From Minisyncoccota bacterium (GTDB lineage: Bacteria; Patescibacteriota; Minisyncoccia; Phycocordibacterales; UBA9973), in assembly GCA_039915165.1 (NCBI GenBank), contig JBDSNU010000018.1:2064-66063 (forward strand): a DNA stretch of 64,000 nucleotides. Direction: 5' to 3'. The translations under genes were made by a program, and so were the position numbers. Shown one piece after another: positions 14,869 to 37,392 of this stretch. Positions within the stretch are counted from its first letter, which is position 1. Every line of letters begins with the position of its first letter. The notes under the pieces were generated by a model. It was not told where the DNA came from, ran no database searches, and was given only the letters and a program-made list of their open reading frames with translations.

Positions 14869-17391
14869 ATGATTGATGGTATGAAAGAACATAAACAACA
14901 TAATGGATTTCCTTGGAAAAAGGTTCTATTTGCATTACTTGCACTTGGATTATTAGGGATCGGAGCAGTATTAATTTGGGCTAGTTTTATTAAACTCCCC
15001 GATATCTCCACTTTTGAGGCCAGACAGATTGCCAATTCATCAAAAATCACTGACCGAACTGGGCAAATAGTACTCTATGATGCTCATCAATCAGTAAAAA
15101 GAACGCAAATCCCATTGGCGAGTATGGGTGACCCTATTCAAAAAGCTGTGATCTCTATCGAAGATCAGGACTTCTATCACAATAGTGGTATTCGACCTAC
15201 ATCAATCTTGCGCGCAGTATTTGTAAACATTATCCATGTTGGATATGTACAAGGAGGTTCTACTATCACTCAACAGATTATTAAAAATACACTGCTCAAC
15301 GGTGATAAATCTGTTGCGCGTAAATTGAAAGAATGGGTATTGGCTGTTCGTCTCACTCGCCAATTTAGTAAAGACCAGATTTTGGAAATCTATCTTAATG
15401 ATGCCCCTCTTGGTGGAACAGTATATGGTGTTGAACAAGCATCACAATCATATTTTGGAATTCCTGCTGCTCAACTTGATTTGGCACAAGCTGCTTATAT
15501 TGCTGCTATGCTCCCTGCTCCAACATACTACTCCCCTTTTGGTTCACACAAAAAAGATCTTGATAGTCGAAAAAATCTTGTCCTTTCAAAAATGAAGCAA
15601 TATGGCTATATCACTAGTGATCAAATGGCTGCTGCAAAAACTGAAGTGGTTGCGTTCAACCAAGCAAGCAATACTGGTGTGAAAGCTCCTCACTTTGTTT
15701 TTTATATTCTTGATCAACTTGAACAAAAATATGGTAAAGACGTGTTGGATAATGATGGATATACAATTAAAACTACTCTTGATTATGATCTTCAACAAAA
15801 AGCTGAGCAGATCGTAGCGACTCAAGTAGCCGCAAATGAAAAACAATACAACGCTTCAAACTCTAGTTTAGTTGCTATTGATCCAACTACAGGACAAATC
15901 CTTACCATGGTTGGTTCTCGTAATTATTTCGACAAACAAATTGATGGTGCTTACAATACTGCTACTGCTCAACGTCAACCGGGTTCATCATTTAAACCAT
16001 TCGTCTATGCCACTGCTTTTGCAAAAGGATATACGCCCGAGACAGTAGTGTTTGATGTGCCTACAGAATTCTCTACAAATTGTACGCCTGACCAACAACC
16101 ACTTGCTGGTTTTACCTCGAAAGATTGTTATAACCCTGCTAACTTTGATAATAAATTCAAAGGCCCAATATCTCTTCGCAGTGCTATAGCTGAATCACGA
16201 AACGTGCCTTCAGTGAAACTTCTTTATTTAGTGGGTGTACAAAATGCTGTTGATTTTGCTCATGCATTAGGTATTACTACACTAACTAATCCTGCTGAAA
16301 TTGGTTTATCACTCGTGCTTGGTGGAGGCGAAGTAAAACTACTTGATATGACTAGTGCGTACGGTGTATTTGCAAATAGTGGTGTACGTAATCCAACAAC
16401 AGGTATTCTTGAAGTCGATGATAATAATGGGAATATTCTTGAACAATATCAACCCAATCCAACATCTGTCATGGATAAAAATGTAGCATTAACAATGAAT
16501 AATGTTCTATCTGATGCACAAGCTCGTATTCCTACATTCGGTACAACACTTATCACTATCCCAGGTGTTGCAGTAAAAACTGGTACAACAAACAGTGACC
16601 GTGATGCCTGGACTGTTGGATACACTCCTTCTATCTCAATTGGTGTATGGTCAGGTAACAATGATAATAAACCGATGAAAAGTGGTGGTTCTGCAATCTC
16701 TGGACCAACATGGAAAATGTTCATGCAATATACATTAACTAAATATCCAAATACTGCTTTTGAAGAACCCGTACCTGATCCAGATGCAAATACTTTGAAA
16801 CCGATCTTACGGGGTATCTGGATAGGTAACGAAACAGTTAAAGTTGATAAAGTAACAGGATTACGTGCTACAGATACAACACCTGCTGATGCAACAACTG
16901 AAAAAGTAATAACTGATGTACATGATATCCTTTATTGGGTAAATAAATCTGATCCTCATGGACCAATACCAACCAATCCAAGTAGCGATCCCCAGTTCCA
17001 TCTTTGGGAACCCTCTGTACAAACATGGTGGGCAAACAATGCTGGGAAATATAATAGTGTTAGTAGTGCTGATATTCCTGCATCATATGATACAGCGGGC
17101 ACTGCCGGTACCACCTCACCATTAAGCTTAAGTGGTATTTCAGATACTATGAATCTTAATGACAATGCCGAAATATCTGTAACAACATCTGCACAATACC
17201 CTCTTACTAGTGTTGATGTACTTATCGATAATAGTTACGTTGCTACACTCCCTGCACCATTTCATTTCGTATTTACACCAAGTGATTATAATTTAAAAAT
17301 TGGTCCACATACTATAACGTTCAACGCTACTAATAGTGTGTATGGTAAAAGTACTATCACAAAAAATATAACTTTTGTTCAAGGAACATAA
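14869..17391 (+). CDS. Class A penicillin-binding protein (transglycosylase + transpeptidase) with a ~200-aa C-terminal extension
   Basis: N-terminal TM; GT51 motifs EDQDFYHNSGI and RQFSKDQILEIYLN; transpeptidase SxxK (GSSFKP), SRN, KTGTT. Confidence 0.85.
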   Translation: MIDGMKEHKQHNGFPWKKVLFALLALGLLGIGAVLIWASFIKLPDISTFEARQIANSSKITDRTGQIVLYDAHQSVKRTQIPLASMGDPIQKAVISIEDQDFYHNSGIRPTSILRAVFVNIIHVGYVQGGSTITQQIIKNTLLNGDKSVARKLKEWVLAVRLTRQFSKDQILEIYLNDAPLGGTVYGVEQASQSYFGIPAAQLDLAQAAYIAAMLPAPTYYSPFGSHKKDLDSRKNLVLSKMKQYGYITSDQMAAAKTEVVAFNQASNTGVKAPHFVFYILDQLEQKYGKDVLDNDGYTIKTTLDYDLQQKAEQIVATQVAANEKQYNASNSSLVAIDPTTGQILTMVGSRNYFDKQIDGAYNTATAQRQPGSSFKPFVYATAFAKGYTPETVVFDVPTEFSTNCTPDQQPLAGFTSKDCYNPANFDNKFKGPISLRSAIAESRNVPSVKLLYLVGVQNAVDFAHALGITTLTNPAEIGLSLVLGGGEVKLLDMTSAYGVFANSGVRNPTTGILEVDDNNGNILEQYQPNPTSVMDKNVALTMNNVLSDAQARIPTFGTTLITIPGVAVKTGTTNSDRDAWTVGYTPSISIGVWSGNNDNKPMKSGGSAISGPTWKMFMQYTLTKYPNTAFEEPVPDPDANTLKPILRGIWIGNETVKVDKVTGLRATDTTPADATTEKVITDVHDILYWVNKSDPHGPIPTNPSSDPQFHLWEPSVQTWWANNAGKYNSVSSADIPASYDTAGTAGTTSPLSLSGISDTMNLNDNAEISVTTSAQYPLTSVDVLIDNSYVATLPAPFHFVFTPSDYNLKIGPHTITFNATNSVYGKSTITKNITFVQGT

Positions 17392-21895: not shown

Positions 21896-21898
21896 AAC

Positions 21899-21925
21899 AA
21901 AAAAAGCCGATATCGGCTTTTTTTA
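21899..21925. terminator. Bidirectional terminator (aaaaaagccgatatcggcttttttt)
   Basis: Perfect hairpin with A-run and T-run, between the yidC stop and the end of the T4SS-like cluster. Confidence 0.65.
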
Positions 21926-23176: not shown

Positions 23177-23193
23177 ATGAATATTGTACTATA

Positions 23194-24843
23194 CTATCTC
23201 CCATCAACAGACCAGTGCCATGGTTCCTTCGAGAAGTTTTTAAGACCATAAGAAGGCTGCGAAGCATTATTCTGCAGCCATATAAAGCATTTATTATCAT
23301 GAGTACTAATGGTATCTGTTGCATTACCACAGGTGAAATCAAACGCCAGACCACTTTCATGATTTGAATGTCCAGGTACAGCAGTTGGCGGTTTACAAAT
23401 CGCTTTTGAGTTTGTTGTGTCACCATTACAATGAGCTTTACGCAAAGCAACCTGTTGTGCATTTGTTCTAAAACCTCCACCTTCTAATATTATGCCTTGA
23501 GCATAGGCAGCTGTAAGCATTCTAGTAAGGTTTGGTGCTATTGTTCTACATGCTAAAAATGATGATTTTTGTACAGTTACTCTTGTTATACCAGCAGTAC
23601 ATATTCCTGCAGCTCCCTCAGGTGCGGAAATATTGCCTTGGTTGATCAAAGGATCTGCATCTTCATCAGGTTGGATACCAATTGCCAGTTGTGCCGGGCC
23701 AATATTGTTATTGCTCACCAGTTTGGGGTTTATAGTATTTAAAATAATATAAGAAGTCATCGCAAGTAATAGTCCTCCTAATGCTGCAAAGAATGCGCCT
23801 TTGGAACTTGCTTTCAAAAAGGGCACATCAGTCATCATGTATTGGTAGCCCTCAAACATGAGACGGAATACCAGCATAACGGCAGATAGTCCGATCAAAA
23901 GATTTAATGCGTAGTTAAGTACATCGTTCATATCACAAAATTTCGGCCCAGCAGTTCCTGATGCTGCGGCAGTTGCACGTTGTTGAGCACAGAGATCGGG
24001 GTCGGGTAATACTTTTAGATCAGGGAAACCAGAGAGTAATGTATAACTATGCTGCGTATTGTAAGAGGCTTGGTCGGTAGTGGTAGAAATAATGTTGCCA
24101 GTACTACTATTGAAATGACCAACGGCATCGTTTACAGAATTTCCATTTAAGGTCACTATCTGTTGAATATAATACACAGCACTAGGGCCGAGTGAGTTCA
24201 AGCGCCATTGATAGGTGCCATCCTCATTTATCCCTTCTACACCTTTACTATTTTCACTATGGAGTGGACCACGAGCATCGGTCAGACTTTTTGCACCATC
24301 TGCTTGCGGGGTTTGAGTGTAATATAGCTCCGCCTTAAAACTACCTGGACTGAAACTACTTACTTTATCAATGTTAATTTTACCTGTTACTAAAATACTC
24401 CCACTAGTTTCCAGTGTTGTTACGAGGTGATCAATAGGAATACTAGCAGCAGCTGTTTTTACAGAAACTGTCGGAGTAATATATTTACCATCACCGCCCT
24501 TTGCCGGGAAGTCTACTACGCGTGCATAGTAAACAGTGTTTGCTTTGAATCCAGTGATTGACCAGGTCACAGTGCCTGTAGTTAATGGAGATGCCCCTGT
24601 CGGTCTTTTAATTGTAGGATCTATAGTTGTTACAGCACTCGGCCCTTTACCACTATATGTATCTCCTGCTGGGAAAGCATCTGTTTGTAGTACAAGTTTA
24701 TACGTATCACTGATCAATGCATCGGTCATTGTTGCATTGATCGTAACCTCTTTTGGTTTTTCAATAGTAAGGTTGTATGCAGCGAAACTACGGCCGACGA
24801 TTAGTAGGGTGAAAATAAATGTTAGCCACAGTATTTTTTTCAT
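23194..24843 (-). CDS. Fusion protein: signal peptide + ~300-aa extracellular domain + two TM helices + C-terminal M15 (VanY-like D-Ala-D-Ala carboxypeptidase) peptidase domain; candidate cell-wall hydrolase of the T4SS-like cluster
   Basis: M15 zinc-peptidase motif VPGHSNHESGLAFDF near the C-terminus. Central hydrophobic pair LLIGLSAVMLVFRLMF / FFAALGGLLLAMTSYIIL. Confidence 0.6.
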   Translation of the reverse strand: MKKILWLTFIFTLLIVGRSFAAYNLTIEKPKEVTINATMTDALISDTYKLVLQTDAFPAGDTYSGKGPSAVTTIDPTIKRPTGASPLTTGTVTWSITGFKANTVYYARVVDFPAKGGDGKYITPTVSVKTAAASIPIDHLVTTLETSGSILVTGKINIDKVSSFSPGSFKAELYYTQTPQADGAKSLTDARGPLHSENSKGVEGINEDGTYQWRLNSLGPSAVYYIQQIVTLNGNSVNDAVGHFNSSTGNIISTTTDQASYNTQHSYTLLSGFPDLKVLPDPDLCAQQRATAAASGTAGPKFCDMNDVLNYALNLLIGLSAVMLVFRLMFEGYQYMMTDVPFLKASSKGAFFAALGGLLLAMTSYIILNTINPKLVSNNNIGPAQLAIGIQPDEDADPLINQGNISAPEGAAGICTAGITRVTVQKSSFLACRTIAPNLTRMLTAAYAQGIILEGGGFRTNAQQVALRKAHCNGDTTNSKAICKPPTAVPGHSNHESGLAFDFTCGNATDTISTHDNKCFIWLQNNASQPSYGLKNFSKEPWHWSVDGR

Positions 24844-25863: not shown

Positions 25864-27741
25864 TTATGCTCTTTGTTGAGACTGAGAAAATTCGTGCTTA
25901 GCTTTTTGAATAGAAATAACTTGAGAAGGATCAGAGGTAATGATTTGATCTTCCGTATAGGAAGCGATAATCTTGATTGCCACATGTTTAAGTCCAGCAA
26001 AGAAAATGCCTTCCCCTACCCCTGATTCTAACAATAGATACTTTTCTTCATCAGTAAGATTGAATGTCTTTTGCAGCACATCCATGGTTGATGGAGATTG
26101 TTTTAGCAATAGCTGAATAGAAGAGTTGGTAATAATCGGTACACCATAAGGACTTTTCATGAAATCCCCCACGTCTTGAGTGATAGTACATAGTCCAAGA
26201 TAGTATTTACGTCCACGCTTTGCGATAGAGTATAGGAAAGAAGCAGTATCATCTGACTTCATCATCCACCAGGCCTCATCAACAACAAGTAATCGTTTTT
26301 TGAGCTCTTTGCGTACAGCATTCCAAATAAAGTGCGTAACAATATACATTGCTGCCGGCTTTAAGTCGTCTTCCATGTCACGGACAGAAAACACTACAAA
26401 TTTTTTATTAATATCAACGTTTGTTGGCTGGTTGATGAAGCTTGCCCATGAGCCATGAGTATATTTTGTCAGTCGCTGTAAAATAGAATCAGTCCCCTCC
26501 ATACCAGAGAGCACCATTTCAAAGTCAGAGAGTAGGGGTGGTTCAATCGTAGAAAAGTCAGAGTCAGCGCTAATATCTTTCAATGAATATGTTTCTGTGA
26601 TAGCACGGTCGATAATAGAGTCTTCTTCTGCACTCAACCCTCCCAACATAATACGGAATAGTCCAACCAGGTTAATAATGTTGCTGCGCAATACATCAGC
26701 AGATGATTCATCTTCACGAGGGATTGGTAGATCAAAAGGGTTGATGTGGTGATCAGATGAAAGTGAAATATTGAAATAACGCCCGCCGATTGCTTCAGCC
26801 AAATACTCGTATTCCCTTTCCGGGTCGATCACAATAACATCTGTATCAAACATGAGTGTACGAATGATCTCGAGTTTTGTGGCATAACTTTTACCGGCAC
26901 CAGACTTAGCGAAAATAATTGAGTTATAGTTTTCTAGACTAAAGCGATCAAAGATCACCAAGCTTGAATTGTGACGGTTAACACCATACAAGATACCTGT
27001 TTCACTTGTTAAGTCGAACGAAACGAAAGGAAACATACTAGAAATAGGCTCGGAATTGAGCTTCTGTGTTACCTGTAGTTTGTCTGTACCAAGCGGCGCA
27101 ACTGTTTTGAAGCCATCTTCTTCCTGGAAGAGTGTTGGTTTTATATAAATAAGCTTTGATTCCAAAAGGGATTTGATCTCGCTTTCTGTACGGAAAAGGT
27201 CAGTTTCATTATCGGCATAGATAGTGATATACATACCAAGGTCAAACATTTTCTCCTGGGCTTGTGTGAGGTTGTCACGAAGTTCTTCAAGGTCTTCACG
27301 CGCAGTGTCGAGCATTGGATCACGAACCAACCCTTTTTGCTGACGAACAATGATCTGACTTTCTACTTCAGCGATCTTTTTCTGAAAGTGTTTCAAGAGC
27401 TCAGCCGTTTCGATTGGGTTGATATAAATAGCGATATCAAAAATCTTATCAAGGTTGATGATCGGCGTTAGCCAGTTGTCAGTTAGATAACGAGGGTATG
27501 AAATGATAAAAAACGTACGAACGATTTTATCACCGATACGCATGGATTTGGACGTTATTTCAATAGCAGAAGGAGCAATTTTGTCTGCCAGTTCCATTGT
27601 TTCCCATTCATGAACTTGATTTGATGAAATGGGCAAGAGGCCTCCGTTATCTTTCATGTGTATAGTATAACACCAGTAGTGCCTATCCGTTAGATTGGCT
27701 AGTGCTTTCTCCAGGGTTGAATGTTTTGTAGAGCACCTCAA
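25864..27741 (-). CDS. VirB4/TraC/PrgJ-like T4SS ATPase, major C-terminal portion (625 aa); the N-terminal 200 aa lie in a different frame
   Basis: Walker A FAKSGAGKSYATK, Walker B LLVVDEAWWMM, VirB4-type motif GLCTITQDVGDF. No ATG in frame; preceded by the out-of-frame fragment at 27683-28318. Confidence 0.8.
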   Translation of the reverse strand: MRCSTKHSTLEKALANLTDRHYWCYTIHMKDNGGLLPISSNQVHEWETMELADKIAPSAIEITSKSMRIGDKIVRTFFIISYPRYLTDNWLTPIINLDKIFDIAIYINPIETAELLKHFQKKIAEVESQIIVRQQKGLVRDPMLDTAREDLEELRDNLTQAQEKMFDLGMYITIYADNETDLFRTESEIKSLLESKLIYIKPTLFQEEDGFKTVAPLGTDKLQVTQKLNSEPISSMFPFVSFDLTSETGILYGVNRHNSSLVIFDRFSLENYNSIIFAKSGAGKSYATKLEIIRTLMFDTDVIVIDPEREYEYLAEAIGGRYFNISLSSDHHINPFDLPIPREDESSADVLRSNIINLVGLFRIMLGGLSAEEDSIIDRAITETYSLKDISADSDFSTIEPPLLSDFEMVLSGMEGTDSILQRLTKYTHGSWASFINQPTNVDINKKFVVFSVRDMEDDLKPAAMYIVTHFIWNAVRKELKKRLLVVDEAWWMMKSDDTASFLYSIAKRGRKYYLGLCTITQDVGDFMKSPYGVPIITNSSIQLLLKQSPSTMDVLQKTFNLTDEEKYLLLESGVGEGIFFAGLKHVAIKIIASYTEDQIITSDPSQVISIQKAKHEFSQSQQRA

Positions 27742-28318
27742 TCACCTCTTGTGTACCAAGTTGTACTAAGCGCAGCCCTACTCCTGAAAGTCCTTGTTCA
27801 ACAACACTTACTCGCTGCTCAAGCTGGGTGCGCTCTTCTTCGAAATCACTAATTGCTCCAGTATCTGAAATTGGTTTACTTTTTAAAAATGAGAAAAATC
27901 TCCCAATACCAGAGTTTTGTTTCAACACCGCAGGTATATAAGGAATAACAACGAAAAAGGATTTGCGCATCACATTCACTTGGTCAGTAAATGTTTGAAT
28001 GAATTGTATATACTCGCGTGTTTGGATCTGCAGCAATTGCTCAGTCTGTTCCTTTAGGCGATTTTCAAGGGTCAAAATGTATGGACGAACATCATAACGT
28101 CGAGACTGCACTACGATTTGTACTGGAAAATCAAGAGTATTTAAGAAATTTTGAAACTGTACCAGTGTTGCACGTTGCTCATCATATGACTTAAGACTCA
28201 AGTTGATAGAAGAAACCAGCACAATAGTACACAGTGTGCCGTCTTTCAATACGACGATACCATCGCGTACTTCTTGTACTGGAACGAATTGTTGTGCAGG
28301 TGTTGATGATACGGCCAT
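27683..28318 (-). CDS. VirB4/PrgJ-like ATPase N-terminal fragment (211 aa), split from the main ORF by a frameshift
   Basis: Resembles the N-terminal domain of Gram-positive VirB4 homologues (PVQEVRDGIVVLKDGTLCTIV). Overlaps the downstream frame by 56 nt. Confidence 0.55.
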   Translation of the reverse strand: MAVSSTPAQQFVPVQEVRDGIVVLKDGTLCTIVLVSSINLSLKSYDEQRATLVQFQNFLNTLDFPVQIVVQSRRYDVRPYILTLENRLKEQTEQLLQIQTREYIQFIQTFTDQVNVMRKSFFVVIPYIPAVLKQNSGIGRFFSFLKSKPISDTGAISDFEEERTQLEQRVSVVEQGLSGVGLRLVQLGTQEVIEVLYKTFNPGESTSQSNG

Positions 28319-28326
28319 GAGAATTT

Positions 28327-28731
28327 CTATACTTTATTTTTGGGGTCAATCACGTCGACGCTCCAAGACAATGTCTTGAGCTTACTCTCGCTCATTGTAG
28401 CACGGTCACCTGAAAGAGATGTTGTAGGACGTGCTGTCGCATTGTTTCTATTAGAATCCTTATGCCATAGATACAATCTTGAGTGGCTATAGAAATTAAT
28501 AAATGATTCAACAACGTTGATAAATGGCTTATCATTATATTTCATAAAAGCTAATGCCCCTGCAAAAATAACAACGGCTGGACCAACAACAATTGCGATG
28601 ATGGTCGGCAAGAAATGAAATGCCAAATACCCTAACCCTGCTCCCCCAGCAAGATATGCAAATTGTTTGAAGGTAAGCGGGCCAAACACTTTGTCTTCCA
28701 TATCAATAAATTGTGGAACTTTGAATTGCAT
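28327..28731 (-). CDS. PrgI/VirB3-like small membrane protein
   Basis: VPQFIDMEDKVFGPLTFKQFAYLAGGAGLGYLAF followed by two TM helices, immediately upstream of VirB4. Confidence 0.5.
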   Translation of the reverse strand: MQFKVPQFIDMEDKVFGPLTFKQFAYLAGGAGLGYLAFHFLPTIIAIVVGPAVVIFAGALAFMKYNDKPFINVVESFINFYSHSRLYLWHKDSNRNNATARPTTSLSGDRATMSESKLKTLSWSVDVIDPKNKV

Positions 28732-28732
28732 A

Positions 28733-29368
28733 TTATATATTGTCTATTGATTCATGATACGGGTCAATAGTATGAGTTGGCGCAGTAGCCTCTACAGGTT
28801 TTTGCATAGATACAGGAACTTGCGCAGTATCAGCAGGAGCTGTTACCCCCGGTTCAGTAATAGGAAGATTGTCAGGCACAGTGCCTTTTTGCAGAGTGTA
28901 ATTGCGAGTAGTAGGGCTAGACATTGAGGATTGCTTTAATCTTTCAGCGAGTGAGGTCAGGCTCGATGACGAGGCAAGAGAAGTAGAAAGGGTTTTGGGG
29001 ATGGGGACATCTTCTGTTTTTTGGGATAGATTATGATCAAGATCTTTATAAACATCAATTAATAAAAGGATTTCAGCAATAACTTTTTTATCAATAACCT
29101 CCTTTATTTTTTGCTTATTAACTTCAGGTGTTATCAGTGTAGAGATATAAGAAATCAGTTCATCTTTTGTTCTTGTTCCAAATAAAAATAATAACACTTC
29201 ATTTGGTAAATCAATTTTTTCTGCCTCACTCGCTACTAACATAGAAAGTTCGTTTTTTACCGCCTCAAATTCATCTCCAAAGATAAACTCTTTAACTTCT
29301 TCAGGGATATCTTGAACGTACCCTTCAATATCATTTATTGTATCTTCATCCATATTATTTCGACTCAT
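28733..29368 (-). CDS. Acidic/Ser-rich hypothetical protein (211 aa) in the T4SS-like cluster
   Basis: Clean ORF tightly packed between the VirB3-like and VirB6-like genes. Confidence 0.4.
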   Translation of the reverse strand: MSRNNMDEDTINDIEGYVQDIPEEVKEFIFGDEFEAVKNELSMLVASEAEKIDLPNEVLLFLFGTRTKDELISYISTLITPEVNKQKIKEVIDKKVIAEILLLIDVYKDLDHNLSQKTEDVPIPKTLSTSLASSSSLTSLAERLKQSSMSSPTTRNYTLQKGTVPDNLPITEPGVTAPADTAQVPVSMQKPVEATAPTHTIDPYHESIDNI

Positions 29369-32300
29369 CTTTTAGTTTATTTCGTTGATCTTCCATGTGC
29401 TTATTGATATTTTGCCATGTTTTAAGGTGTGTTTCTGCCTTCTCCTTCTCTTTTAGTTTATCTAAAAAGGCTTGTTTAACATTTACATCATCAGGTGCAT
29501 TTACCCATGCTCTCTTTGCGGCATTTAAATCATTATTAATATCTTTAATATTGTACTTGCTCTGCTCTCTAACTTTAACGAGTTCCTGGTATTGTCTTAG
29601 GTCTTCTTTACGGTCCGCTTCTGCATCTTTGTCTGTTAATGGGGTATTTAGTTTTGTGCGGTGAGCATCAACACTTGTCTTTTCTGCTGCGTCGAGGATA
29701 TCGTACATAGTTTTTCCTTTCTTTGTGCCAGATTGAATACTCCCGTCTCGAATAATATCTTGTTGTTCAGCAAGCGTTAATTGTGTCTTAAAGCTAGGAC
29801 TAGTTTGATACATCTCCAAGCCAATCATATCCTGAAAACCTTTTGTAAGTGTATTTTCAATTTTTTCTAAGTCTGCTGTAATTTTTGATTTCTCTTTAAT
29901 CTTCTTCGCGGCTTTGGCATCACCTGCCGCACGAACCTCAGATCCCATGAGTGCCCCCACTGTTGCACCAAGGAGGTCGGCAATTTGTGCACCGCCTTCG
30001 CCTGTACTTGCTAATGCTGCTAATCCTTGAGTCACATAACCCCCCTTCTGAAGGTTTTTAGCAAAGTCTTCTCTGCGAGCAGAAGTAATTTCAGATGCTT
30101 TTTTCAAAGGCTCTGGTGCAGGCGGTATTGCAGCAATAGCTGTAACCACAGGGGCAGTTGCTGCTACTCGAGTCTTTTCTGTTTCGTAAGCGGTCGGGTT
30201 ATTTTTTTTCCAATCCTTTACATCTTTCATAGAAAGATTATTTGTTTTAGCGATTTCCTTATCGACAATACGATCAACTGTACGCTTTCTATCAGCACTC
30301 TTTCGTTCGTTATATGCCTTGATTTGGTCGTCTGACATTTTTTCTTCCAGCAATGTGTTCTTCTCTTCTTGAGAGGCTTGTCTACGTTTAATATCTGCTT
30401 CTATTCCACCTTTACGTTGATCTGTTCCTAATCCAAGACCTATTCCTGCAAGAGCGTTGAGAGGTTTTTGGTCAGCATTGATACCAAGTCGTGAGAAAAA
30501 TTGTTTACCTACGCCTGTTTGACGAACATCATAGGAACCATTACGTCCTGCATTAAGTCCACGTTGCAATGTTCGTCCGGTAAATCCAGCCAACCCACTT
30601 TTTGCTGCCATGTTACGAATGCCTATACCAACACGTGACTCATCAGTACGCTTAGCAAGTCCTCCTACAACTCGACCCCCGAGTAAGGCTGCACCACCTG
30701 TTGCTAGCCCTGCTGCAAGGCCGATTCCAGACGTTGCTAAGCTTTGTACACTCTTCCCTATTTCACCAGCAAAACTCTCGGCTGCTTTTTGTGCTGCACC
30801 GATCAAGAAGAAAATAATAACCATCGGGATGATGACACCAAGTGCTAGCGCAAAGAAGTTACCTGACGGATCTTCGTAACCAATTTGCTTGGCGAAATCA
30901 CTCGAAAGAAATGTAAATATAATGTATAAGAAAAAGATGAATACCGGGGCCATCATGGCATAGCTTGTCACTTCTTTGAGCCAATCACTCCAACGCAAAC
31001 GAGCAATACCTCCGAGTAATGGTATGTCTCGACTCAAAAATGCAAATGGAGAGAAGATCATACATATATAGAGTCCAACAACACGACCAACGAAAAGGAA
31101 TGTCACCTTGAAGAACATGACGGTAACACCTGCCATGATCAGTGCGGCAACTATACAAATAATACCGAAATAGTTGGCCTGGTCTCGCTCAGAATTACTC
31201 GCTACCGCACCTGTTTTTGTTGCGTCTACTTTTAATGCATTGCCTTCACTGGATGAGTCTGAAGTACTTTGCAATACGCTGGCTTGAAACAATTGTTGAG
31301 GGTTGAAGGCGGAAACTATTTTTTCTGATAGTGGCCAGTACCCTCCTGTTCCTTGTTTTGCATGCGCCGCATCACATTTCCCATCAACAATATTTACTGT
31401 ATCACAAACAATCATCTGACTATAAAACATACGGGCAGTAATATTTGAGATATCGATAATCACATGCGTAGCAAAAAGACTGAAGTTAATCAGTAAAGCA
31501 TTCACGATCAGGTTCGGGATCACTTTCTTCATCACTCCTGATTTGCTTGGGTCAAATACCGCAGAAAATCCAGTAAATACCATAATGATGATGAAAAATA
31601 CATTGGCGATATCGCGCACCAGTTTCCATCCAGTAATAGCAAATGCATAACGATATGATTGATCGCTTAAGGAGTATCCCAAGAAAAAGTCGAAAAGTTT
31701 ACCAAACAATCCTGCAACTGTGGCGACAAGCCAATACAGGCCGTAGGCAATTTGAGCCATACAGCCGTTAATAGTCCCTTTAGATACTGGATCAATACTA
31801 CATCGAGGAAGGTTGTCTGCAACTTCACGCCCGCCCGCAGTAGCTGTTTGGTTATTAGTTTGTGCTTGCACGGCAGCATCGTCTGCAGGAATAGAGATAG
31901 TAGAAGATTGTCCGATTTTGAAGTAGGTGCCGCCTTTACAGAGGGTCCCAAATGTACCAATAGTATCTCCCATACCATCCCCTTGATATAAAGCCGACCC
32001 ATTACCTTCAGCAGCATCGTCGGTTTTATTGCCACAATACCACATTGTAATTTCTACCGTACTTGGTTTAGAAAAAGTAACAGTATCAATATGACTAACT
32101 GTTCCTTCATTTTTTGTCCCAGTTATATTTCTGATAAAAGTATACTTGGCACCGCTTCTTGTACTTTTATCTAATATTGAAAAGTTAGCTAAGGTTGTTG
32201 GGTTTTTATACTCCCCTGTTCCACCTTTACTCTTTTGGTAAAGAGCACCTTGGTTATCAGTGAACTTACCAGAACCTTCAACAAGATAAGGCACAGTATT

Positions 32301-32714
32301 AAGCCAGCACTGCCCGGCACTATTTTTATCACAAACTCTGATTACAAAGGATTCAGGGTCATATATGTTTTCCCAAAAACCAGTTGTATCTTGTACATGA
32401 GCCCACTTTTTCTCAATCTCATCCTTATTCGAAGTTAAAAACCCTAAACTTATGTCTACCTTAAGCCCGACTACACTTTTATTTGAATTGTCTTGAATTA
32501 AAGACCCTGCTTGTGCAGGCGATACGCCGCTTCCAACCCCATCAAAGACAGTAAAATAGTTACCGTATTTGTTCAGTGTATTATCGTCGGGTGGAGCAGC
32601 AAAAGTTTTATGCGGGAAAATAGCTACCGCACATAAAATAGCGATAGTTAAAAAGAATGTTTTACTCAAACGAGAAAAGGGATTTTTTATACGACGAAGG
32701 AGACGTGCGGACAC
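29355..32714 (-). CDS. VirB6/TrbL-like polytopic membrane protein (1119 aa): signal peptide, ~270-aa ectodomain, multi-TM core, ~400-aa Lys/Glu-rich coiled-coil cytoplasmic tail
   Basis: At least 8 hydrophobic helices between aa ~320 and 640. C-terminal third is charged and low in hydrophobics, with heptad-like periodicity. Confidence 0.55.
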   Translation of the reverse strand: MSARLLRRIKNPFSRLSKTFFLTIAILCAVAIFPHKTFAAPPDDNTLNKYGNYFTVFDGVGSGVSPAQAGSLIQDNSNKSVVGLKVDISLGFLTSNKDEIEKKWAHVQDTTGFWENIYDPESFVIRVCDKNSAGQCWLNTVPYLVEGSGKFTDNQGALYQKSKGGTGEYKNPTTLANFSILDKSTRSGAKYTFIRNITGTKNEGTVSHIDTVTFSKPSTVEITMWYCGNKTDDAAEGNGSALYQGDGMGDTIGTFGTLCKGGTYFKIGQSSTISIPADDAAVQAQTNNQTATAGGREVADNLPRCSIDPVSKGTINGCMAQIAYGLYWLVATVAGLFGKLFDFFLGYSLSDQSYRYAFAITGWKLVRDIANVFFIIIMVFTGFSAVFDPSKSGVMKKVIPNLIVNALLINFSLFATHVIIDISNITARMFYSQMIVCDTVNIVDGKCDAAHAKQGTGGYWPLSEKIVSAFNPQQLFQASVLQSTSDSSSEGNALKVDATKTGAVASNSERDQANYFGIICIVAALIMAGVTVMFFKVTFLFVGRVVGLYICMIFSPFAFLSRDIPLLGGIARLRWSDWLKEVTSYAMMAPVFIFFLYIIFTFLSSDFAKQIGYEDPSGNFFALALGVIIPMVIIFFLIGAAQKAAESFAGEIGKSVQSLATSGIGLAAGLATGGAALLGGRVVGGLAKRTDESRVGIGIRNMAAKSGLAGFTGRTLQRGLNAGRNGSYDVRQTGVGKQFFSRLGINADQKPLNALAGIGLGLGTDQRKGGIEADIKRRQASQEEKNTLLEEKMSDDQIKAYNERKSADRKRTVDRIVDKEIAKTNNLSMKDVKDWKKNNPTAYETEKTRVAATAPVVTAIAAIPPAPEPLKKASEITSARREDFAKNLQKGGYVTQGLAALASTGEGGAQIADLLGATVGALMGSEVRAAGDAKAAKKIKEKSKITADLEKIENTLTKGFQDMIGLEMYQTSPSFKTQLTLAEQQDIIRDGSIQSGTKKGKTMYDILDAAEKTSVDAHRTKLNTPLTDKDAEADRKEDLRQYQELVKVREQSKYNIKDINNDLNAAKRAWVNAPDDVNVKQAFLDKLKEKEKAETHLKTWQNINKHMEDQRNKLKDESK

Positions 32715-32744
32715 TCGTATAGTGTATCACGTAAGCGTTATTAT

Positions 32745-33854
32745 TTACCACAAGTTAATGCGCAAAAACTTTTCTGTAACTGGTGCAATAATATCTAAGT
32801 CACCTAATGATGATCCTGTAGTCGGTACGGATTGTGGAGAAGAAAATGTAACCAATCCATATGGTCCACGGATAAGAGAAACACCAGGCAAGAGCTGGTC
32901 AATGCCATGTGCCGGTAATGGAACTTCTGGATTATCATCGTTGTTATCATGCACGGCAGTTGTATGAGCAAGTCCGTATCCAGAGAATGTTAGGAACGAA
33001 AGACTGTCCTGTGCAGGATCAGAAGTAGGGATAGTAACCCCTGTTTTATTCTTAACATAGGCTGCAATTTCAGGGTTATTGTAATATGATCGCCAAAATG
33101 GTGTAGCAATGTGAAGTTTCAAGCGAGGGTCGTTTGCGCCGTTGCTATTAATAGCTGGAAGTTTCGATTCACAGTATGCATAGAGTTCCAATATAGAATC
33201 AGCCTTATTTTTAAAGGCATCATGGTTGGCTAGTTCAGTTTCTACATCAGTATCATTGTGAAGTGTTTGTGCTAGTGTATAAAATCTACTTTGCAAAATA
33301 TTTAATTGAGCAAGCTGGTCTGCAGTAAAAGGAATGGTAATGTCATCATCACTACATACTGAAGCACTGCCGGCATTTGAGTTGCCGGGCGAGTTTGCAT
33401 CTCCTCCTGAATTGTTATTACTACCATTTGCACCAGTACCTGTTGAGCCATTTGCCCCACTGCCATTGCCTGTAATAGGGTTATTTGCTCCAAAACTACC
33501 AGCAAGACTTGTTGTACCATTAGTAAAGTTACTGATATTAACATTTCCTGTACCGCCGATACCAATCCCTCCTAGTCCACTTGTATCAATAGTACCGTCA
33601 CCTCCAAAACCATTTGCCCCTGTTGTTGACCCATTGTTATTTTTTGGAGTGCCATCAGCATTGAATTGAGAAGTGCCTTCACCAGGTAGTATCGCCGCCG
33701 CATCCTTCTTTGTACTCAGTCCAAGAAATTGTCTGAAGGTTAATGGCGCAGCGCCATTTTTAATAGCTTTATTCCGTCCAATAAGCCAGATAATACCTAA
33801 GATAAGGAAAAATACAGCGATAAGAGTAAGGATAATTTTTAGGATGCGATTCAT
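32745..33854 (-). CDS. N-terminally anchored Gly/Asn-rich protein (369 aa)
   Basis: TM MNRILKIILTLIAVFFLILGIIWLI, followed by G/N/S-rich low-complexity region. Confidence 0.4.
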   Translation of the reverse strand: MNRILKIILTLIAVFFLILGIIWLIGRNKAIKNGAAPLTFRQFLGLSTKKDAAAILPGEGTSQFNADGTPKNNNGSTTGANGFGGDGTIDTSGLGGIGIGGTGNVNISNFTNGTTSLAGSFGANNPITGNGSGANGSTGTGANGSNNNSGGDANSPGNSNAGSASVCSDDDITIPFTADQLAQLNILQSRFYTLAQTLHNDTDVETELANHDAFKNKADSILELYAYCESKLPAINSNGANDPRLKLHIATPFWRSYYNNPEIAAYVKNKTGVTIPTSDPAQDSLSFLTFSGYGLAHTTAVHDNNDDNPEVPLPAHGIDQLLPGVSLIRGPYGLVTFSSPQSVPTTGSSLGDLDIIAPVTEKFLRINLW

Positions 33855-33864
33855 ATGATAAATA

Positions 33865-36105
33865 TTATATAGCTATGTTTTTATAGAAGAAATTACTCGA
33901 CTCAGTTGCATGGGCTTCGATAGGGTCTTGCACATCAAGTTGTTCTTGTGGTGCGACGGGCACTATAGGACTATTGTCTATCACATAGGCATTGTTAATA
34001 CATTGTAAGTCAACAGGGTTTCCCTGTGCCGCACGGCTTTTAATATAAGCTGCCTTGGCAGTGCCAACAATATCATTAATTTGCTTCTGAATTACCAACA
34101 TTTGACGAATATTGTTTTCTGTTTGTCCGATATTTGTATCGTACTGTGCATCAATAGCAGAAGCAGCCTTGTTGTATCCCAAAATGCTATAGAGATTGAT
34201 CTTTGTATCAGCCAAGAATCCATCCGCATAGCTCTTGTCGGCATCGTTTTGTCCTGCGATAAGAAATGCATGTTCAACAGGCGTTGCACTATATGGAGTT
34301 GGAGAAACAGCGTCTGTAAAAGGTTGTAGTGTATTCCAATATGAATATTGTTCTGTAACAAGGTTAAAGGCGTTGTGATATCCTGCAGAAATTTTTGCAG
34401 CATTATCGTCGTCGGCATGAGCCCATGTCGTATAAAATACTCGAGGTACCTGAATAGCGGCACCGCTTACTGGATCATTCAAATACCCAGGAGTAGTCCA
34501 TATTGGAGGAGCTTCCCCAGCGTGATCACCAATCCCTAATATTGTGCCAAGAAATGACCCAATAATTGGCAGGCTTTCAACTATTTTGTGCGAAGTAGAT
34601 GTTTTTGTTGGATCATCCTGTACGAGTGGTCCAAACATTGCTTCTAGGTTGGCTGCTGCACCCGCTGACCATGTAGGTGTAGGTCCAGGAATACAATAGT
34701 CCAATGCCCCTAGGTTAGGAATAATACGGTTAATTGCAGTCTGTGCGTCTTTGGTGCGAACAAGAAAGTCATATTGTGTTTGTAGTATAAGGCGGAATTG
34801 TTGCGGTCGTGAAATATCAAAGTTCTGATCAATGCCGTTTCCTCCCTTTGATGCCTGGTATCCAAGCGAAGCGGTGTCGCTGACTGTTGAGTTGAGAGCG
34901 TTGCCGTTACTGTCTAATACAACATTGTCTCCAGAAGAACTAAATCCAAAATCAACAGTGCTTCCCTGACTGCCACTACCACGCAACCCTTTTGATAGAA
35001 GACTATTTACAAAACTATCAAAAAATCCGCCAAGCACCTCGTTGATTTTGTCTGCATACTCTAGTTGTCGAATCGGCGAAGTTGTAATAGCCTGCACTTG
35101 AGCCGCAATGATCGATCCAGGCGTATCAGTTTGCCATTGTATACAAGTTGGATTGGTCGAAAGACCTCCAGAAATTGCTGTACTAGAAGAAGTAAAACTA
35201 TTATCCGCATATTGCACACAGTGTTTCATATCAAGAAATCCATTGTTGCGCTGGATTTCATCTTTTGAAGACTGTTGTTCAGACGCGACTTTTCGGGCGA
35301 GGTTATCAGTAGCAGTAAAGAGTGCACCAATAGAGTTATATTGAGGATTAAGAAAAGAGTCCCACCCCCCATTTGTGAAATTACCTAAAAATGAAGTGTA
35401 GGCTTTTGCTTGGGGGGTATCTGGATATACATTGAGTAATCCATCAGAGCGACCGGTAATGCCCTGACGAATACCTGACTCGAGAGCATTACCAAAAATA
35501 GAGTCAGACTGTGGCAGGTCTGCTAAGTATGACTTTATTTGATTGTTGGCAATTGTTTTTAGGAAAGAGTTACTGTTTTGAACATATAGAGGGTTACCGT
35601 TGAGGCCTGTATTTACCCAGTTCAATGTTTTATTAGTTACTTGTGCCAATGTGTTTTTTGCAACAGCGTATGCGATACCGTTCAAACAGTTTGTTGTTCG
35701 ATTGGCGGAATCAATTTTTGCCTGAGTCTTTTCGTCAGTAGTAGACACTGGATCGCTATCACCCCCATTATTAAAGGCAGATTTAATACTTTTGGCAAAA
35801 CTAGTATTTGAAAGGAAGTCGCTGGCAGTATTTGCTAAAAAACCACCAACATTGGTACAGCTAGCGATCGCGCCACCCACGCCGCTGATAGATATCCCTT
35901 GATATGAATTTCCAGAATTAATTTTGACATTAGGATTAAATTTCTGCAGTGTTGGAGATGCTGCCTTGTTCAAACACTGTGTACGAGCTGTTCCAGTAAG
36001 AGTAGTGCAGTCAGTAGTAACCGCAGCTGCTACTGATTGCGGTAGTGAAAAAGCAATAATACCGATGACTGCGATGCCTATAATACTTTTTTTACTGAAT
36101 GACAT
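33865..36105 (-). CDS. Large secreted protein (746 aa), unknown function
   Basis: Signal peptide MSFSKKSIIGIAVIGIIAFSLPQSVAAA. Confidence 0.45.
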   Translation of the reverse strand: MSFSKKSIIGIAVIGIIAFSLPQSVAAAVTTDCTTLTGTARTQCLNKAASPTLQKFNPNVKINSGNSYQGISISGVGGAIASCTNVGGFLANTASDFLSNTSFAKSIKSAFNNGGDSDPVSTTDEKTQAKIDSANRTTNCLNGIAYAVAKNTLAQVTNKTLNWVNTGLNGNPLYVQNSNSFLKTIANNQIKSYLADLPQSDSIFGNALESGIRQGITGRSDGLLNVYPDTPQAKAYTSFLGNFTNGGWDSFLNPQYNSIGALFTATDNLARKVASEQQSSKDEIQRNNGFLDMKHCVQYADNSFTSSSTAISGGLSTNPTCIQWQTDTPGSIIAAQVQAITTSPIRQLEYADKINEVLGGFFDSFVNSLLSKGLRGSGSQGSTVDFGFSSSGDNVVLDSNGNALNSTVSDTASLGYQASKGGNGIDQNFDISRPQQFRLILQTQYDFLVRTKDAQTAINRIIPNLGALDYCIPGPTPTWSAGAAANLEAMFGPLVQDDPTKTSTSHKIVESLPIIGSFLGTILGIGDHAGEAPPIWTTPGYLNDPVSGAAIQVPRVFYTTWAHADDDNAAKISAGYHNAFNLVTEQYSYWNTLQPFTDAVSPTPYSATPVEHAFLIAGQNDADKSYADGFLADTKINLYSILGYNKAASAIDAQYDTNIGQTENNIRQMLVIQKQINDIVGTAKAAYIKSRAAQGNPVDLQCINNAYVIDNSPIVPVAPQEQLDVQDPIEAHATESSNFFYKNIAI

Positions 36106-36109
36106 ATTG

Positions 36110-37012
36110 TTATGAAGTAAGTATACCGTATTTTGTTAAATAAATATCTAGATCGTACAATGCATTTTGTCCACGAGTGAAATACACTTTATATAAAGCC
36201 ACTCCAACTAGCGCTTGTGTCCCGTTATCTTCCATTTGCTGCAGGTAGCCAAACGATGTTGCGACACCAGTGAAACTATTAATCATATCGAGGTGATATT
36301 GCGCTACCCCAACTGGAACTTTAATAGCCACAAGTTCTTTTGCCATTGCAGTATAGGCATCGCCAATCGGTGTTAGTTGCGGTAATTGGCTATAGTCACC
36401 TGTTTCAGCTGCTTGCACAATAATAGTGATATCACCTTGTTCCAGGTTGTATTTATTGATTATTTTTGCCACAGCAGTACGGTAAGTCTTTAAAGAAGCC
36501 GTAGAGGTTGGCACAGTGTGAATGTTTTTGAGCGAATATTTATTACTAATTGAGTCAACGTTTACTGATGAGCCAAGTTGGTCAGCTACACTTTGTAGTG
36601 CAGTGTCATCAATAGCATCATTTTGACTCAATGCAGTGGTAATACTAAAGAGTTTTTGTGCAATGGCATCTGTTTCATTTTGTGGTGCACCGGTACTTGT
36701 ATCTGTAATCCCTAATGCCAACTTCTTTTCTTTGATGATTTGTTCATTTGTTTTGCCATTTGTATATAAAACCGTCGGATCAAGTCCCCACAGCTTTTCT
36801 TCCCAGTCAGGTATGCCATTTCCGTTAGAGTCTTTTGATGTCAAATCACTAATACTCAGGTTACCGATATCAGCTTTTGTCGCCTTTTTTGTTTTATGAA
36901 AAATATTATAAAACCAGTTTGTTTGCACAACCAAAATAATCGCTATTACTCCAATAGCGATCCCTCCACGGATTAAAAATTGTTTACTAGGACCAGATGT
37001 TGTTGGGGGCAT
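36110..37012 (-). CDS. Bitopic membrane protein (300 aa): N-terminal TM plus extracytoplasmic domain; candidate VirB8-like component
   Basis: TM GIAIGVIAIILVVQT. Position within the cluster. Calcium-binding-like loop DSNGNGIPDWEE. Confidence 0.35.
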   Translation of the reverse strand: MPPTTSGPSKQFLIRGGIAIGVIAIILVVQTNWFYNIFHKTKKATKADIGNLSISDLTSKDSNGNGIPDWEEKLWGLDPTVLYTNGKTNEQIIKEKKLALGITDTSTGAPQNETDAIAQKLFSITTALSQNDAIDDTALQSVADQLGSSVNVDSISNKYSLKNIHTVPTSTASLKTYRTAVAKIINKYNLEQGDITIIVQAAETGDYSQLPQLTPIGDAYTAMAKELVAIKVPVGVAQYHLDMINSFTGVATSFGYLQQMEDNGTQALVGVALYKVYFTRGQNALYDLDIYLTKYGILTS

Positions 37013-37023
37013 AGATTATATGA

Positions 37024-37392
37024 CTAAAAGCCGAAATATGAAGTGGTACCGGAAATGTTGTAATTACTTGTTTTGCGTACAGGAAAAGGAAGTTGTACGC
37101 CGAATGCTGTAATTTGACACGTACTAAAATCGGGAATGATACTTGTCGTGCCCAAAATCCAATCTCCTACTCGCGGAGTTTTTGAAAGGCTATTTGCATA
37201 CAGAGGAATACCGCTAATATTTGAAATGACCACAGGTCCAGTGCCTGCGCCTGTACAAGTAACAAGGGGGACAGTGGTTAATTTAACTTTGCCACCAAAA
37301 GATTTAGTAAGCGGGTTGGATGCATATGTTGCCAAAGGGATAATTATAAGTACTGCAATTATTGCAAGACTGATGATCATATGTTTTTTCAT
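37024..37392 (-). CDS. Small secreted protein (122 aa), first gene of the cluster; possible pilin-like/surface subunit
   Basis: Signal peptide MKKHMIISLAIIAVLIIIPLATYA. Confidence 0.4.
   Translation of the reverse strand: MKKHMIISLAIIAVLIIIPLATYASNPLTKSFGGKVKLTTVPLVTCTGAGTGPVVISNISGIPLYANSLSKTPRVGDWILGTTSIIPDFSTCQITAFGVQLPFPVRKTSNYNISGTTSYFGF

Follow-up and report, generated by a model that had tools for sequence, protein, structure and literature searches.

VirB1-like enzymes of Gram-positive type IV secretion systems (T4SSs) combine two domains, SLT and CHAP, and they are always membrane-anchored with the enzyme domains outside the cell (PMC12857230). Chromosomal, origin-proximal T4SSs with VirB2-like pilins and pilin arrays were surveyed in Patescibacteria by Quinonero-Coronel et al. 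in 2025 (PMC12102498); they are related to the monoderm MPF-FATA conjugation systems and usually have no relaxase. In that survey VirB1-profile matches were associated with virB4 only in Paceibacteria, and since most VirB2-bearing genomes had no VirB1, pilus biogenesis was viewed as apparently needing no VirB1 homologue. The T4SS, including its VirB2-like pilins, is essential in Ca. Southlakia epibionticum, the one species tested (PMC10633639), and the role of the Patescibacteria T4SS has been called "completely unknown" (PMC11665869). The present work concerns one gene of such a system, located in a 64,000 bp stretch (hereafter the window) of contig JBDSNU010000018.1 from a Paceibacteria metagenome-assembled genome. 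Its 549-aa product unites a VirB2-like pilin hairpin with a predicted cell wall peptidase, and the peptidase belongs to a set of enzyme cassettes that are exchanged at this locus.

The new elements are the pilin-hydrolase fusion and its swappable enzyme cassette. The M15 annotation itself was already known: the NCBI entry 'M15 family metallopeptidase [Candidatus Paceibacterota bacterium]' is 100% identical to the 549-aa protein, so the bare M15 call had been made. No pilin-hydrolase fusion and no cassette swapping were found described in the Patescibacteria T4SS literature that was searched; domain-architecture databases or further papers may record the architecture.

The protein consists of five parts, namely a signal peptide, two FN3-like domains, a two-helix hairpin, a disordered linker of about 40 aa and a C-terminal M15B peptidase. 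Hydropathy analysis gave three hydrophobic segments, at residues 3-23 (the signal, ending in SFA followed by AY), 307-326 and 349-369. The AlphaFold2 model, built on 30 homologues with a mean pLDDT (predicted local distance difference test score) of 82.7, contains a signal helix at 3-15, short helices at 255-264 and 282-295, and a long alpha-hairpin at 305-337 and 341-370. The pLDDT is below 50 over residues 371-391, the linker runs on to about residue 414, and a compact domain with pLDDT above 90 follows at 415-549. In a Foldseek search of the PDB the N-terminal half, an ectodomain of about 280 aa, matched tandem fibronectin-III structures (E ~4e-7), and 10 of 78 homologues match Pfam fn3 or Pur_ac_phosph_N. 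The signal peptide is predicted to be cleaved. Because a cleavable signal peptide is combined with an even number (two) of membrane helices, the FN3 pair and the peptidase would both lie outside the cell, with the short loop of the hairpin in the cytoplasm. Eight cysteines are invariant or at least 90% conserved, two ahead of the hairpin (C285, C303) and six in the enzyme (C415, C432, C472, C483, C505, C519), and all eight fall in segments predicted to be extracytoplasmic.

The hairpin was compared with known pilins at several levels. A search with the 126-aa core alone as query, in a word-indexed database of 5.8 billion sequences, returned four proteins out of 46 candidates, all of them stand-alone pilins of about 200 aa (P0079-P0082; E = 1e-8 to 1e-6, 39-50% identity), and two of the four carry PF18895 T4SS_pilin. 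P0080, matched by the core at E=3.4e-8, itself reaches 32.4 bits with PF18895, for which the cut-off is 26.6. When the core alignment was compared with the alignment of stand-alone pilins using hhalign, a probability of 99.8% was obtained (E=1.2e-29, 102 columns), and the motifs Y-x-LLAP-x-PG and YIILNTI-x-P are common to both. PF18895 is matched at E<1e-3 by 16 of the 78 homologues and TrbC/VirB2 PF04956 by one; in P0015, P0030 and P0054 the PF18895 score is above the curated cut-off and the match spans exactly the hairpin, ending at LNTINP. The profile comparisons argue that the hairpin is truly homologous to the VirB2-like PF18895 pilins and not merely similar to them. Residues I367, L368, N369, T370, I371, N372 and P373 (ILNTINP) are invariant or at least 90% conserved and are followed by K-L-V and then by the poorly conserved linker; variable C-terminal extensions past the same motif also occur in stand-alone PF18895 pilins. 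DUF4199, which gave a below-threshold Pfam match to the hairpin of the query, was regarded as generic two-helix similarity and rejected.

The protein resembles VirB2/TrbC pilins (PF18895; Ca. Southlakia epibionticum ML1, TM7x) in its layout: behind the signal peptide stand two hydrophobic helices connected by a short basic loop, both ends being predicted to lie outside. Its gene, like those of other Patescibacteria VirB2-like pilins, is encoded in a T4SS cluster near the replication origin. Unlike the stand-alone pilins of about 100-200 aa, it has 549 aa, with about 280 aa of FN3 between signal peptide and core and a folded enzyme behind the core, and its polymerisation is putative. Since the mature protein (~528 aa) is far larger than stand-alone pilins (~70-200 aa), it is named a pilin-domain protein here and not a pilin. 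In contrast to the pilin arrays of other Patescibacteria it is the single pilin-like gene of the window: the core profile, run against every reading frame of the 64 kb, detected no second pilin-like module. Separately, the search of cluster representatives with the core profile (below) brought up 'poly-pilin' proteins with 7-17 tandem hairpins in one polypeptide (P0083 of 1775 aa, P0105, P0120, P0123, P0163 and P0095); they may represent pilin arrays, of the kind known from Patescibacteria, that have become fused.

The C-terminal domain carries the signature HSNHESGLAFDF and matches Pfam VanY PF02557 over aa 434-545 (E=4.9e-12; 46.2 bits, the curated cut-off being 25; profile positions 7-128 of 132). 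The SxHxxGxAxD motif, as defined for VanX/VanY-domain enzymes (PMC3315420), and the ExxH motif are both present, and G457-F-R459-T pairs with 'GYRT' in VanY. When 30 homologues bearing VanY were aligned, R459, S493, H495, G498, A500, D502, E540 and H543 proved invariant. The best PDB sequence matches are VanY-G (5hnm), VanY-B (5zhf) and LdcB enzymes, with 'avpgHSNHESGLAFDf' standing opposite 'avpgtSeHqlGlAvDi' and 'EPWHw' opposite 'EPWHy'; NCBIfam gave weak, below-threshold similarity to VanXY, LdcB and VanY-B/G. The fold is of the LAS/VanY type, nearest to VanYB, LdcB and VanXY, and L-Ala-D-Glu endopeptidases score almost as well by fold. From its motifs, all of them intact, the domain is classified as an M15B zinc peptidase and is predicted to be active. 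By sequence it is nearer to DD-/LD-carboxypeptidases (VanY, LdcB), and the bond cut may be that of terminal D-Ala or that between L-Ala and D-Glu. Compared with the VanY/VanXY DD-carboxypeptidases, LdcB and the VanY-domain endolysins (Ply500, LysB4, CwlK), the query domain has six conserved cysteines, which therefore probably form three disulfides. Compared with its M15B/M15C relatives (VanY, LdcB, Ply500, LysB4, CwlK) it has no SH3 or other wall-binding domain, and it is tethered to a pilin module.

These results agree with most of what the initial annotation had proposed. It had read the minus-strand open reading frame, which exists with an ATG start and encodes 549 aa, as an M15 (VanY-like) zinc peptidase lying C-terminal to two transmembrane helices, and both the helices and the peptidase were recovered. 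Its N-terminal ectodomain is now resolved into two FN3-like domains, and the VirB2/TrbC resemblance, which it had called loose, is strengthened to homology by the hhalign comparison. Alignment of the metal ligands and prediction of the topology had been suggested as checks; the ligands and catalytic residues are present, and the peptidase is placed outside the cell.

The enzyme behind the hairpin differs from one relative to the next. The 78 database homologues have the N-terminal part and the hairpin in common and differ at the C-terminus, where each bears a single tail past LNTINP (~125-280 aa in those listed). Pfam assigned VanY to 36 of them, NlpC/P60 to 16 (9 also with Amidase_5), M15_4 to 5, SLT_2 to 5, SLT to 3, YkuD to 2 and SLT_4 to 1. 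The tails were clustered after trimming 35 residues, as untrimmed single-linkage joined VanY with NlpC/P60 through the shared linker, and fell into about ten unrelated classes. With M15 included, at least ten cassettes, all peptidoglycan-active, can stand in for one another at the locus. The related loci L001 (NlpC/P60), L002 (YkuD) and L003 (SLT_2) have the gene order of the window, one gene for one, over the whole span that begins with the ~1100-aa protein and ends with PBP1a and a tRNA synthetase; L004 (SLT-like and NlpC/Amidase_5 in tandem) and L008 (VanY) are also syntenic with it. Since different enzyme versions occupy the same locus, the exchange occurs at one orthologous site. A tree built by neighbour joining from the 240 conserved residues that precede the junction has the tail classes interleaved throughout, and heads that are 95-100% identical bear unrelated tails.

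The limits of the cassette were determined from two pairs of closely related strains. L008 (VanY) and L009 (SLT-like) are 96.1% identical over 2125 bp upstream and 99.65% identical over 6006 bp downstream; the non-homologous block between (472 versus 739 bp) begins 20 residues past LNTINP and ends at most 5 bp from the stop codon. L089 (SLT_2-type) and L090 (SLT-type) are 99.3% identical over 5885 bp upstream and 99.7% over 3486 bp downstream, and their block (649 versus 580 bp) is bounded 17 residues past LNTINP and just ahead of the conserved junction motif. It is at this motif, TAGTACAAT, or just ahead of it, that the swapped strains become homologous again. In the window and in nearly all related loci the extended form (TA)TAGTACAAT precedes the ATG of the following gene by 5-10 nt, and it is kept across genomes whose flanking proteins share only 45-65% identity. 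Three roles are conceivable for it: as the -10-like element of a leaderless transcript, as a coupling element or as an anchor for recombination. A role as a general promoter word was considered and is not supported, the motif having only 2 exact copies in 64 kb (0.96 expected). Of the 83 upstream mismatches between L008 and L009, 56 fall at aa ~185-310 (window ~23915-24290), in FN3-like domain 2 and the pre-hairpin segment, which suggests diversifying selection or a recombination tract reaching into the head. No downstream gene was exchanged together with the cassette in L008/L009 or L089/L090, and no cassette-linked immunity gene was found at the swapped loci; the downstream gene, for a beta-propeller protein of 411-441 aa, is kept in all loci whatever the cassette.

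Two tandem pilin-hydrolase genes occupy the same slot in L004/L006 (ENA ERZ650244, a 405-kb contig), L022-L025, L029, L030, L034, L036 and L040. Such two-copy loci always combine different enzyme classes, for example SLT-like with NlpC/P60 or VanY with SLT-like. P0057 has a head 100% identical to that of P0062 and a tail 100% identical to that of P0051, that is, the head of the first copy and the tail of the second. Deletion by recombination would account for it, and so would a collapse of the tandem pair during assembly; since a collapse would give the same sequence, P0057 was not counted as evidence of recombination.

A genome scan, restricted to one genome per species, found relatives of the protein encoded in at least 365 species-level genomes. 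For detailed counts 79 loci were kept, and all taxa named for them belong to the Patescibacteria lineage (Nomurabacteria, Paceibacterota, Parcubacteria and others). They contain 92 pilin-module open reading frames, of which 84 have a tail of 90 aa or more; two copies occur in 13 of the loci. Every Pfam family found in the 84 tails acts on peptidoglycan: NlpC/P60 (11), SLT (8), VanY (6), YkuD (5), SLT_2 (5), Amidase_5 (4) and SLT_4 (2), with Amidase_2, M15_4, 3D, Lysozyme_like, Peptidase_M15, SLT_3, Phage_lysozyme2 and ELLD found once each. VirB4 is encoded within 4 kb in 67 of the 79 loci, and in 66 it lies upstream on the same strand. When the core profile was searched with HMMER against 1.84 billion cluster representatives, 27,608 proteins were matched at E<=1e-3 and 159, the close subfamily, at E<=1e-30; of the 91 single-module proteins that this search was the first to reveal, 87 bear a tail of 120 aa or longer (median 211 aa).

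How the locus compares with Gram-positive VirB1-like hydrolases depends on whether architecture or sequence is considered. As in PrgK (pCF10), TraG (pIP501), Orf14 (Tn916), TcpG (pCW3) and CwlT (ICEBs1), the gene lies inside a T4SS operon near VirB4, and the product is predicted to be membrane-anchored with the enzyme outside, which corresponds to the definition of VirB1-like proteins in PMC12857230. The enzyme classes overlap with the Gram-positive VirB1-like set (SLT, CHAP/NlpC-P60, LytM, muramidase), and the two-copy loci, which typically pair an SLT/lysozyme-like or unclassified cassette with a peptidase, echo the SLT and CHAP combination. Unlike in the PrgK/TraG type, the anchor is a VirB2-like pilin hairpin behind two FN3 domains instead of a simple N-terminal transmembrane helix, and the catalytic domain is exchanged between close strains; unlike in the SLT and CHAP enzymes, each polypeptide has one catalytic domain. 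M15B is absent from the VirB1 classes listed in the 2025 review (PMC12857230). The sequence homology that marks VirB1, TrsG and CD419 (SLT or CHAP/NlpC-P60) is not found in the M15 query, and orthologues at the slot carry SLT or NlpC/P60. By this analogy the query would work like VirB1, yet it is not a VirB1 member by sequence. The initial annotation had set an M15 peptidase against the Gram-positive hydrolase types; this is correct for the query and fails as a fixed trait, since SLT and NlpC/P60 (CHAP-like) domains occupy the slot in orthologues.

We consider it probable that the protein is a wall-active subunit of this T4SS, a functional VirB1-equivalent built on a VirB2-like pilin module whose enzyme cassette is swapped by recombination. 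The signal peptide would export the protein, the hairpin would sit in the membrane with its short loop in the cytoplasm, and outside the cell the FN3-like pair and the M15B peptidase, the latter on a flexible tether of about 40 residues, would be exposed. The peptidase would cut the peptide stems of peptidoglycan beside the secretion machine, a role like that of VirB1, PrgK or TraG in which the pilin module replaces a plain membrane anchor. Recombination between the end of the pilin module (...ILNTINPKLV and about 15 further residues) and the post-stop junction would bring in other peptidoglycan-active domains, and some genomes keep two tandem copies, typically one with an SLT/lysozyme-like (or unclassified) cassette and one with a peptidase. 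Both the enzymatic activity and the physical association with the T4SS are predicted. The wall of the producer is put forward tentatively as the target; the wall of the host is a possible but less favoured one, so that own-wall action appears slightly more likely. The PrgK/TraG analogy, including the pairing of two classes in two-copy loci, and the short tether to the membrane of the producer speak for the own wall. Class switching between strains that are more than 99% identical, the variable surface-exposed FN3 domain, cassettes that modify walls rather than open them (VanY-like, YkuD) and a carrier that is a pilin speak for the host wall. The initial annotation had suggested remodelling of a peptidoglycan cell wall. 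As to whose wall this would be, two readings are live, the producer's own wall and that of the host.

Several observations weigh against the VirB1-equivalent reading. The query itself matches neither PF18895 nor PF04956, either as the whole protein at E<=0.1 or as the isolated core at E<=10, and its pilin membership therefore rests on profile and transitive evidence. Its M15 domain is nearest in sequence to VanY/LdcB carboxypeptidases, and since VanY/LdcB-type and YkuD cassettes trim stem peptides they would by themselves open no hole in a wall. A housekeeping assembly factor would not be expected to change its enzyme class between strains whose flanks are >99% identical; an effector under diversifying selection fits this better. 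The related sequences all stem from metagenome assemblies, and repeated conserved cores can produce chimeras, as P0057 may illustrate; against such an artefact, the contigs of the strain pairs run unbroken across the locus and were obtained from different samples, and dozens of species-level genomes show the pattern again.

The effector-like pattern leads to a different and less probable explanation, in which the protein is directed at the host: the pilin module would polymerise into or cap the T4SS pilus, or sit at the contact between epibiont and host, with FN3 as adhesin and the enzyme facing the host wall. In this scheme, less probable as a whole, the protein would be the effector arm of the Patescibacteria T4SS in or on a VirB2-type surface filament, its FN3 domains binding the host and its hypervariable, horizontally exchanged cassette breaching the host wall or weakening it locally; the turnover of cassettes would then reflect adaptation to differing host wall chemistries or defences. 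If this were true, the epibiont could attach and take up material, and the locus would encode a polymorphic system for wall degradation that is displayed on a pilus and has no immunity genes. The pattern is indeed like that of polymorphic toxins: the classes are interleaved across the phylogeny of the heads, near-identical strains have exchanged them, and the strain mismatches are concentrated in the surface-exposed region of the second FN3 domain. The repertoire (NlpC/P60, lysozyme/SLT, M15, YkuD, amidase) is that of antibacterial peptidoglycan effectors and endolysins, and can be likened to the peptidoglycan effectors Tae, Tge and Tlde1 of type VI secretion systems (T6SSs). VirB2-like pilins are essential in a Saccharibacterium, and the system has no relaxase or coupling protein, so that protein export or another role has been proposed (PMC10633639). 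Against a host-directed weapon, each subunit would bear globular domains of ~280 aa and ~135 aa, whose accommodation in a VirB2-type filament is putative, and the pilus in this lineage is itself only putative. A 40-aa tether from the membrane of the producer falls short of the host wall unless the protein is polymerised or released, and at least one cultivated member of the Paceibacteria is reported with an archaeal host, without peptidoglycan, judging by the co-culture cited in PMC12102498. Release is the essence of another proposal, which fits either target and which we regard as improbable: the product would be a pro-protein, and a cut past the pilin core, near ...NPKLV in the disordered linker, would free a soluble wall enzyme and a mature pilin. 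C-terminal trimming is undergone by RP4 TrbC, the near-invariant ILNTINP followed by K-L-V precedes a disordered, poorly conserved linker, and stand-alone PF18895 pilins likewise have variable C-terminal extensions past the motif; yet no protease candidate was identified in the operon, and the conservation of the motif is equally explained by the end of a membrane helix and a recombination anchor.

A classical polymorphic toxin, delivered by the T4SS against competing relatives and neutralised by a cognate immunity protein, is very improbable. The layout is that of CdiA-CT, Rhs and the effectors of T6SSs and type VII secretion systems (T7SSs; Tae, Tge, Tlde1), with a conserved delivery part in the N-terminal region, a junction motif and a recombining C-terminal enzyme, here from a peptidoglycan-targeting repertoire, that is swapped between strains. 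T4SS-delivered peptidoglycan hydrolase toxins are reported from Xanthomonas and Stenotrophomonas. Unlike in the CdiA-CT, Rhs, T6SS and T7SS systems, the cassette breaks off on its 3' side with the stop codon or junction motif, the 417-aa gene is kept and no co-varying immunity gene lies directly downstream, which disfavours a toxin; likewise unlike in these systems, the carrier is an integral membrane protein of a pilin family with a Sec signal, encoded in a core chromosomal operon, and not a soluble T4SS substrate. There is equally little reason to see in the gene a housekeeping DD-/LD-carboxypeptidase (LdcB/VanY-like) for wall maturation that is a T4SS neighbour by chance, with the hairpin as an ordinary anchor. 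Its nearest relatives in sequence and fold are VanY/LdcB carboxypeptidases, and PBP1a and a LysM-M23 protein are also encoded in the window. The same slot in sister genomes, however, holds glycosidase-, NlpC/P60- or YkuD-type enzymes, none of which substitutes for a carboxypeptidase, and it is this occupation by non-equivalent enzymes that disfavours such a role; moreover, the anchor is homologous to T4SS pilins and the place in the T4SS operon is conserved, 66 of 79 genomes having a same-strand VirB4 upstream.

The preferred VirB1-equivalent reading bears on the view that VirB1 is dispensable for the Patescibacteria pilus (PMC12102498), for in a large Paceibacteria lineage the pilin module and a wall enzyme form one polypeptide, and most cassette types (VanY, M15_4, YkuD, Amidase_2 and others) would escape VirB1 profiles. 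Swapping of enzyme classes at the strain level is a sign of an interface molecule under selection, from which it would follow that peptidoglycan, the producer's own or that of a host, is what the T4SS engages. The locus thereby gives a concrete lead on the function of a poorly understood secretion system. The features of the gene and its surroundings are listed in Table 1.

Table 1. Features of the pilin-hydrolase gene and of the adjoining T4SS operon (window positions).
Feature	Position	Strand	Remarks
Whole gene, 549-aa pilin-hydrolase fusion	23194..24843	-	ATG start; stop codon at 23194-23196
Signal peptide, aa 1-21 (MKKILWLTFIFTLLIVGRSFA then AY)	24781..24843	-	K2/K3 N-terminal, SFA-A cleavage-like site
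FN3-like beta-sandwich domain 1, aa 24-130	24454..24774	-	AlphaFold2 strands with pLDDT ~85-90; Foldseek
FN3-like beta-sandwich domain 2, aa 137-245, membrane-proximal; most variable part between near-identical strains	24109..24435	-	AlphaFold2; Foldseek
Conserved pre-hairpin segment, aa 262-304	23932..24060	-	Y-x-LL-x-x-P ... DPDLC ... C-D-x-N-D; conserved C285, C303; alignments
VirB2-like T4SS_pilin (PF18895-type) two-helix membrane hairpin, aa 305-373	23725..23931	-	Ends in near-invariant ILNTINP
Flexible linker, aa 374-414	23602..23724	-	Low pLDDT; cassette 5' boundary ~17-20 residues past LNTINP
M15B (VanY/LdcB-type) zinc peptidase domain (predicted), aa 415-549	23197..23601	-	Six conserved cysteines
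Zinc-binding motif S493-N-H495-E-S-G498-L-A500-F-D502 (SxHxxGxAxD)	23338..23367	-	Alignment; invariant
E540-P-W-H543 (ExxH), catalytic Glu and third zinc ligand	23215..23226	-	Aligned to EPWH of VanY structures; invariant
Conserved junction motif TAGTACAAT	23183..23191	-	Between stop codon and next ATG; cassette 3' boundary at or just before
Downstream partner gene, 417 aa	21923..23176	-	Last of operon; N-terminal transmembrane anchor and beta-propeller; homologue in 79 fetched loci
Bidirectional terminator-like hairpin	21898..21925		Between 417-aa gene and yidC; consensus scan only
Upstream partner gene, 323 aa	24865..25836	-	N-terminal transmembrane anchor or signal, no family match; homologue in 76 fetched loci
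VirB4-like ATPase in two genes	25864..28318	-	TraC-like N-part 27683-28318 (211 aa); P-loop part 25864-27741 (~600 aa)
PrgI (VirB3-like) gene	28327..28731	-	Pfam PF12666, E=3.1e-11
Six T4SS-like operon genes (211, 1119, 369, 746, 300, 122 aa)	28733..37392	-	No family match

The T4SS operon is chromosomal and adjoins yidC-rnpA-dnaA-dnaN, which is divergent. The genes are tightly packed on the minus strand in the order 122, 300, 746, 369, 1119 and 211 aa, PrgI, VirB4 N-part, VirB4 P-loop part, 323 aa, pilin-hydrolase and 417 aa, following ksgA; the pilin-hydrolase gene is the second to last, with gaps of 17-21 nt to both neighbours. The initial annotation had placed it in a T4SS-like cluster as the only hydrolase-like gene, and this was borne out: the VirB4-like ATPase is encoded two genes upstream and PrgI further upstream, and family searches recognised no hydrolase domain in the other 11 genes. 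The P-loop part of VirB4 matches NCBIfam conju_CD1110 (E=1.5e-114, 383.9 bits against a cut-off of 325) and Pfam P-loop_TraG, and the N-part matches VirB4/TrsD models of NCBIfam. Read from its first listed TTG, the P-loop open reading frame overlaps with the gene upstream, and its true start therefore probably lies further inside. A frameshift as the cause of the two-gene split was ruled out, as the split is kept at every related locus examined (L001-L004, L008, L089, L090). In the fully examined related loci genes matching the six-gene part in length and order lie upstream. Among them, the 1119-aa protein (29355-32714, minus strand) has six hydrophobic segments; from its position and predicted topology it is likely a VirB6-like channel subunit. 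The model of the 417-aa protein (pLDDT 87.7) gave generic WD40/TolB-like propeller matches only.

The two further wall-related genes that had been named, for a LysM-M23 protein (41033..42247) and a class A PBP (PBP1a, 14869..17391), were both found in the window. An open reading frame at the window edge (63038-63988, minus strand), about 39 kb from the T4SS operon, matches TraG-D_C PF12696 (E=2.6e-6) and may be part of a VirD4-like coupling protein, possibly continuing past the window. At the edge of the T4SS cluster, directly upstream of ksgA, lies a MazF/PemK-type toxin gene (38225-38584, minus strand; E=1.3e-22). The window also encodes a PilB/T2SSE-type ATPase (6733-8451, plus strand; E=3e-114), a XerC/D-type tyrosine recombinase (46500-47405, plus strand), a surface protein with DUF11 repeats (2050-4092, minus strand) and a surface protein with a CarboxypepD_reg domain (58775-60766, plus strand).

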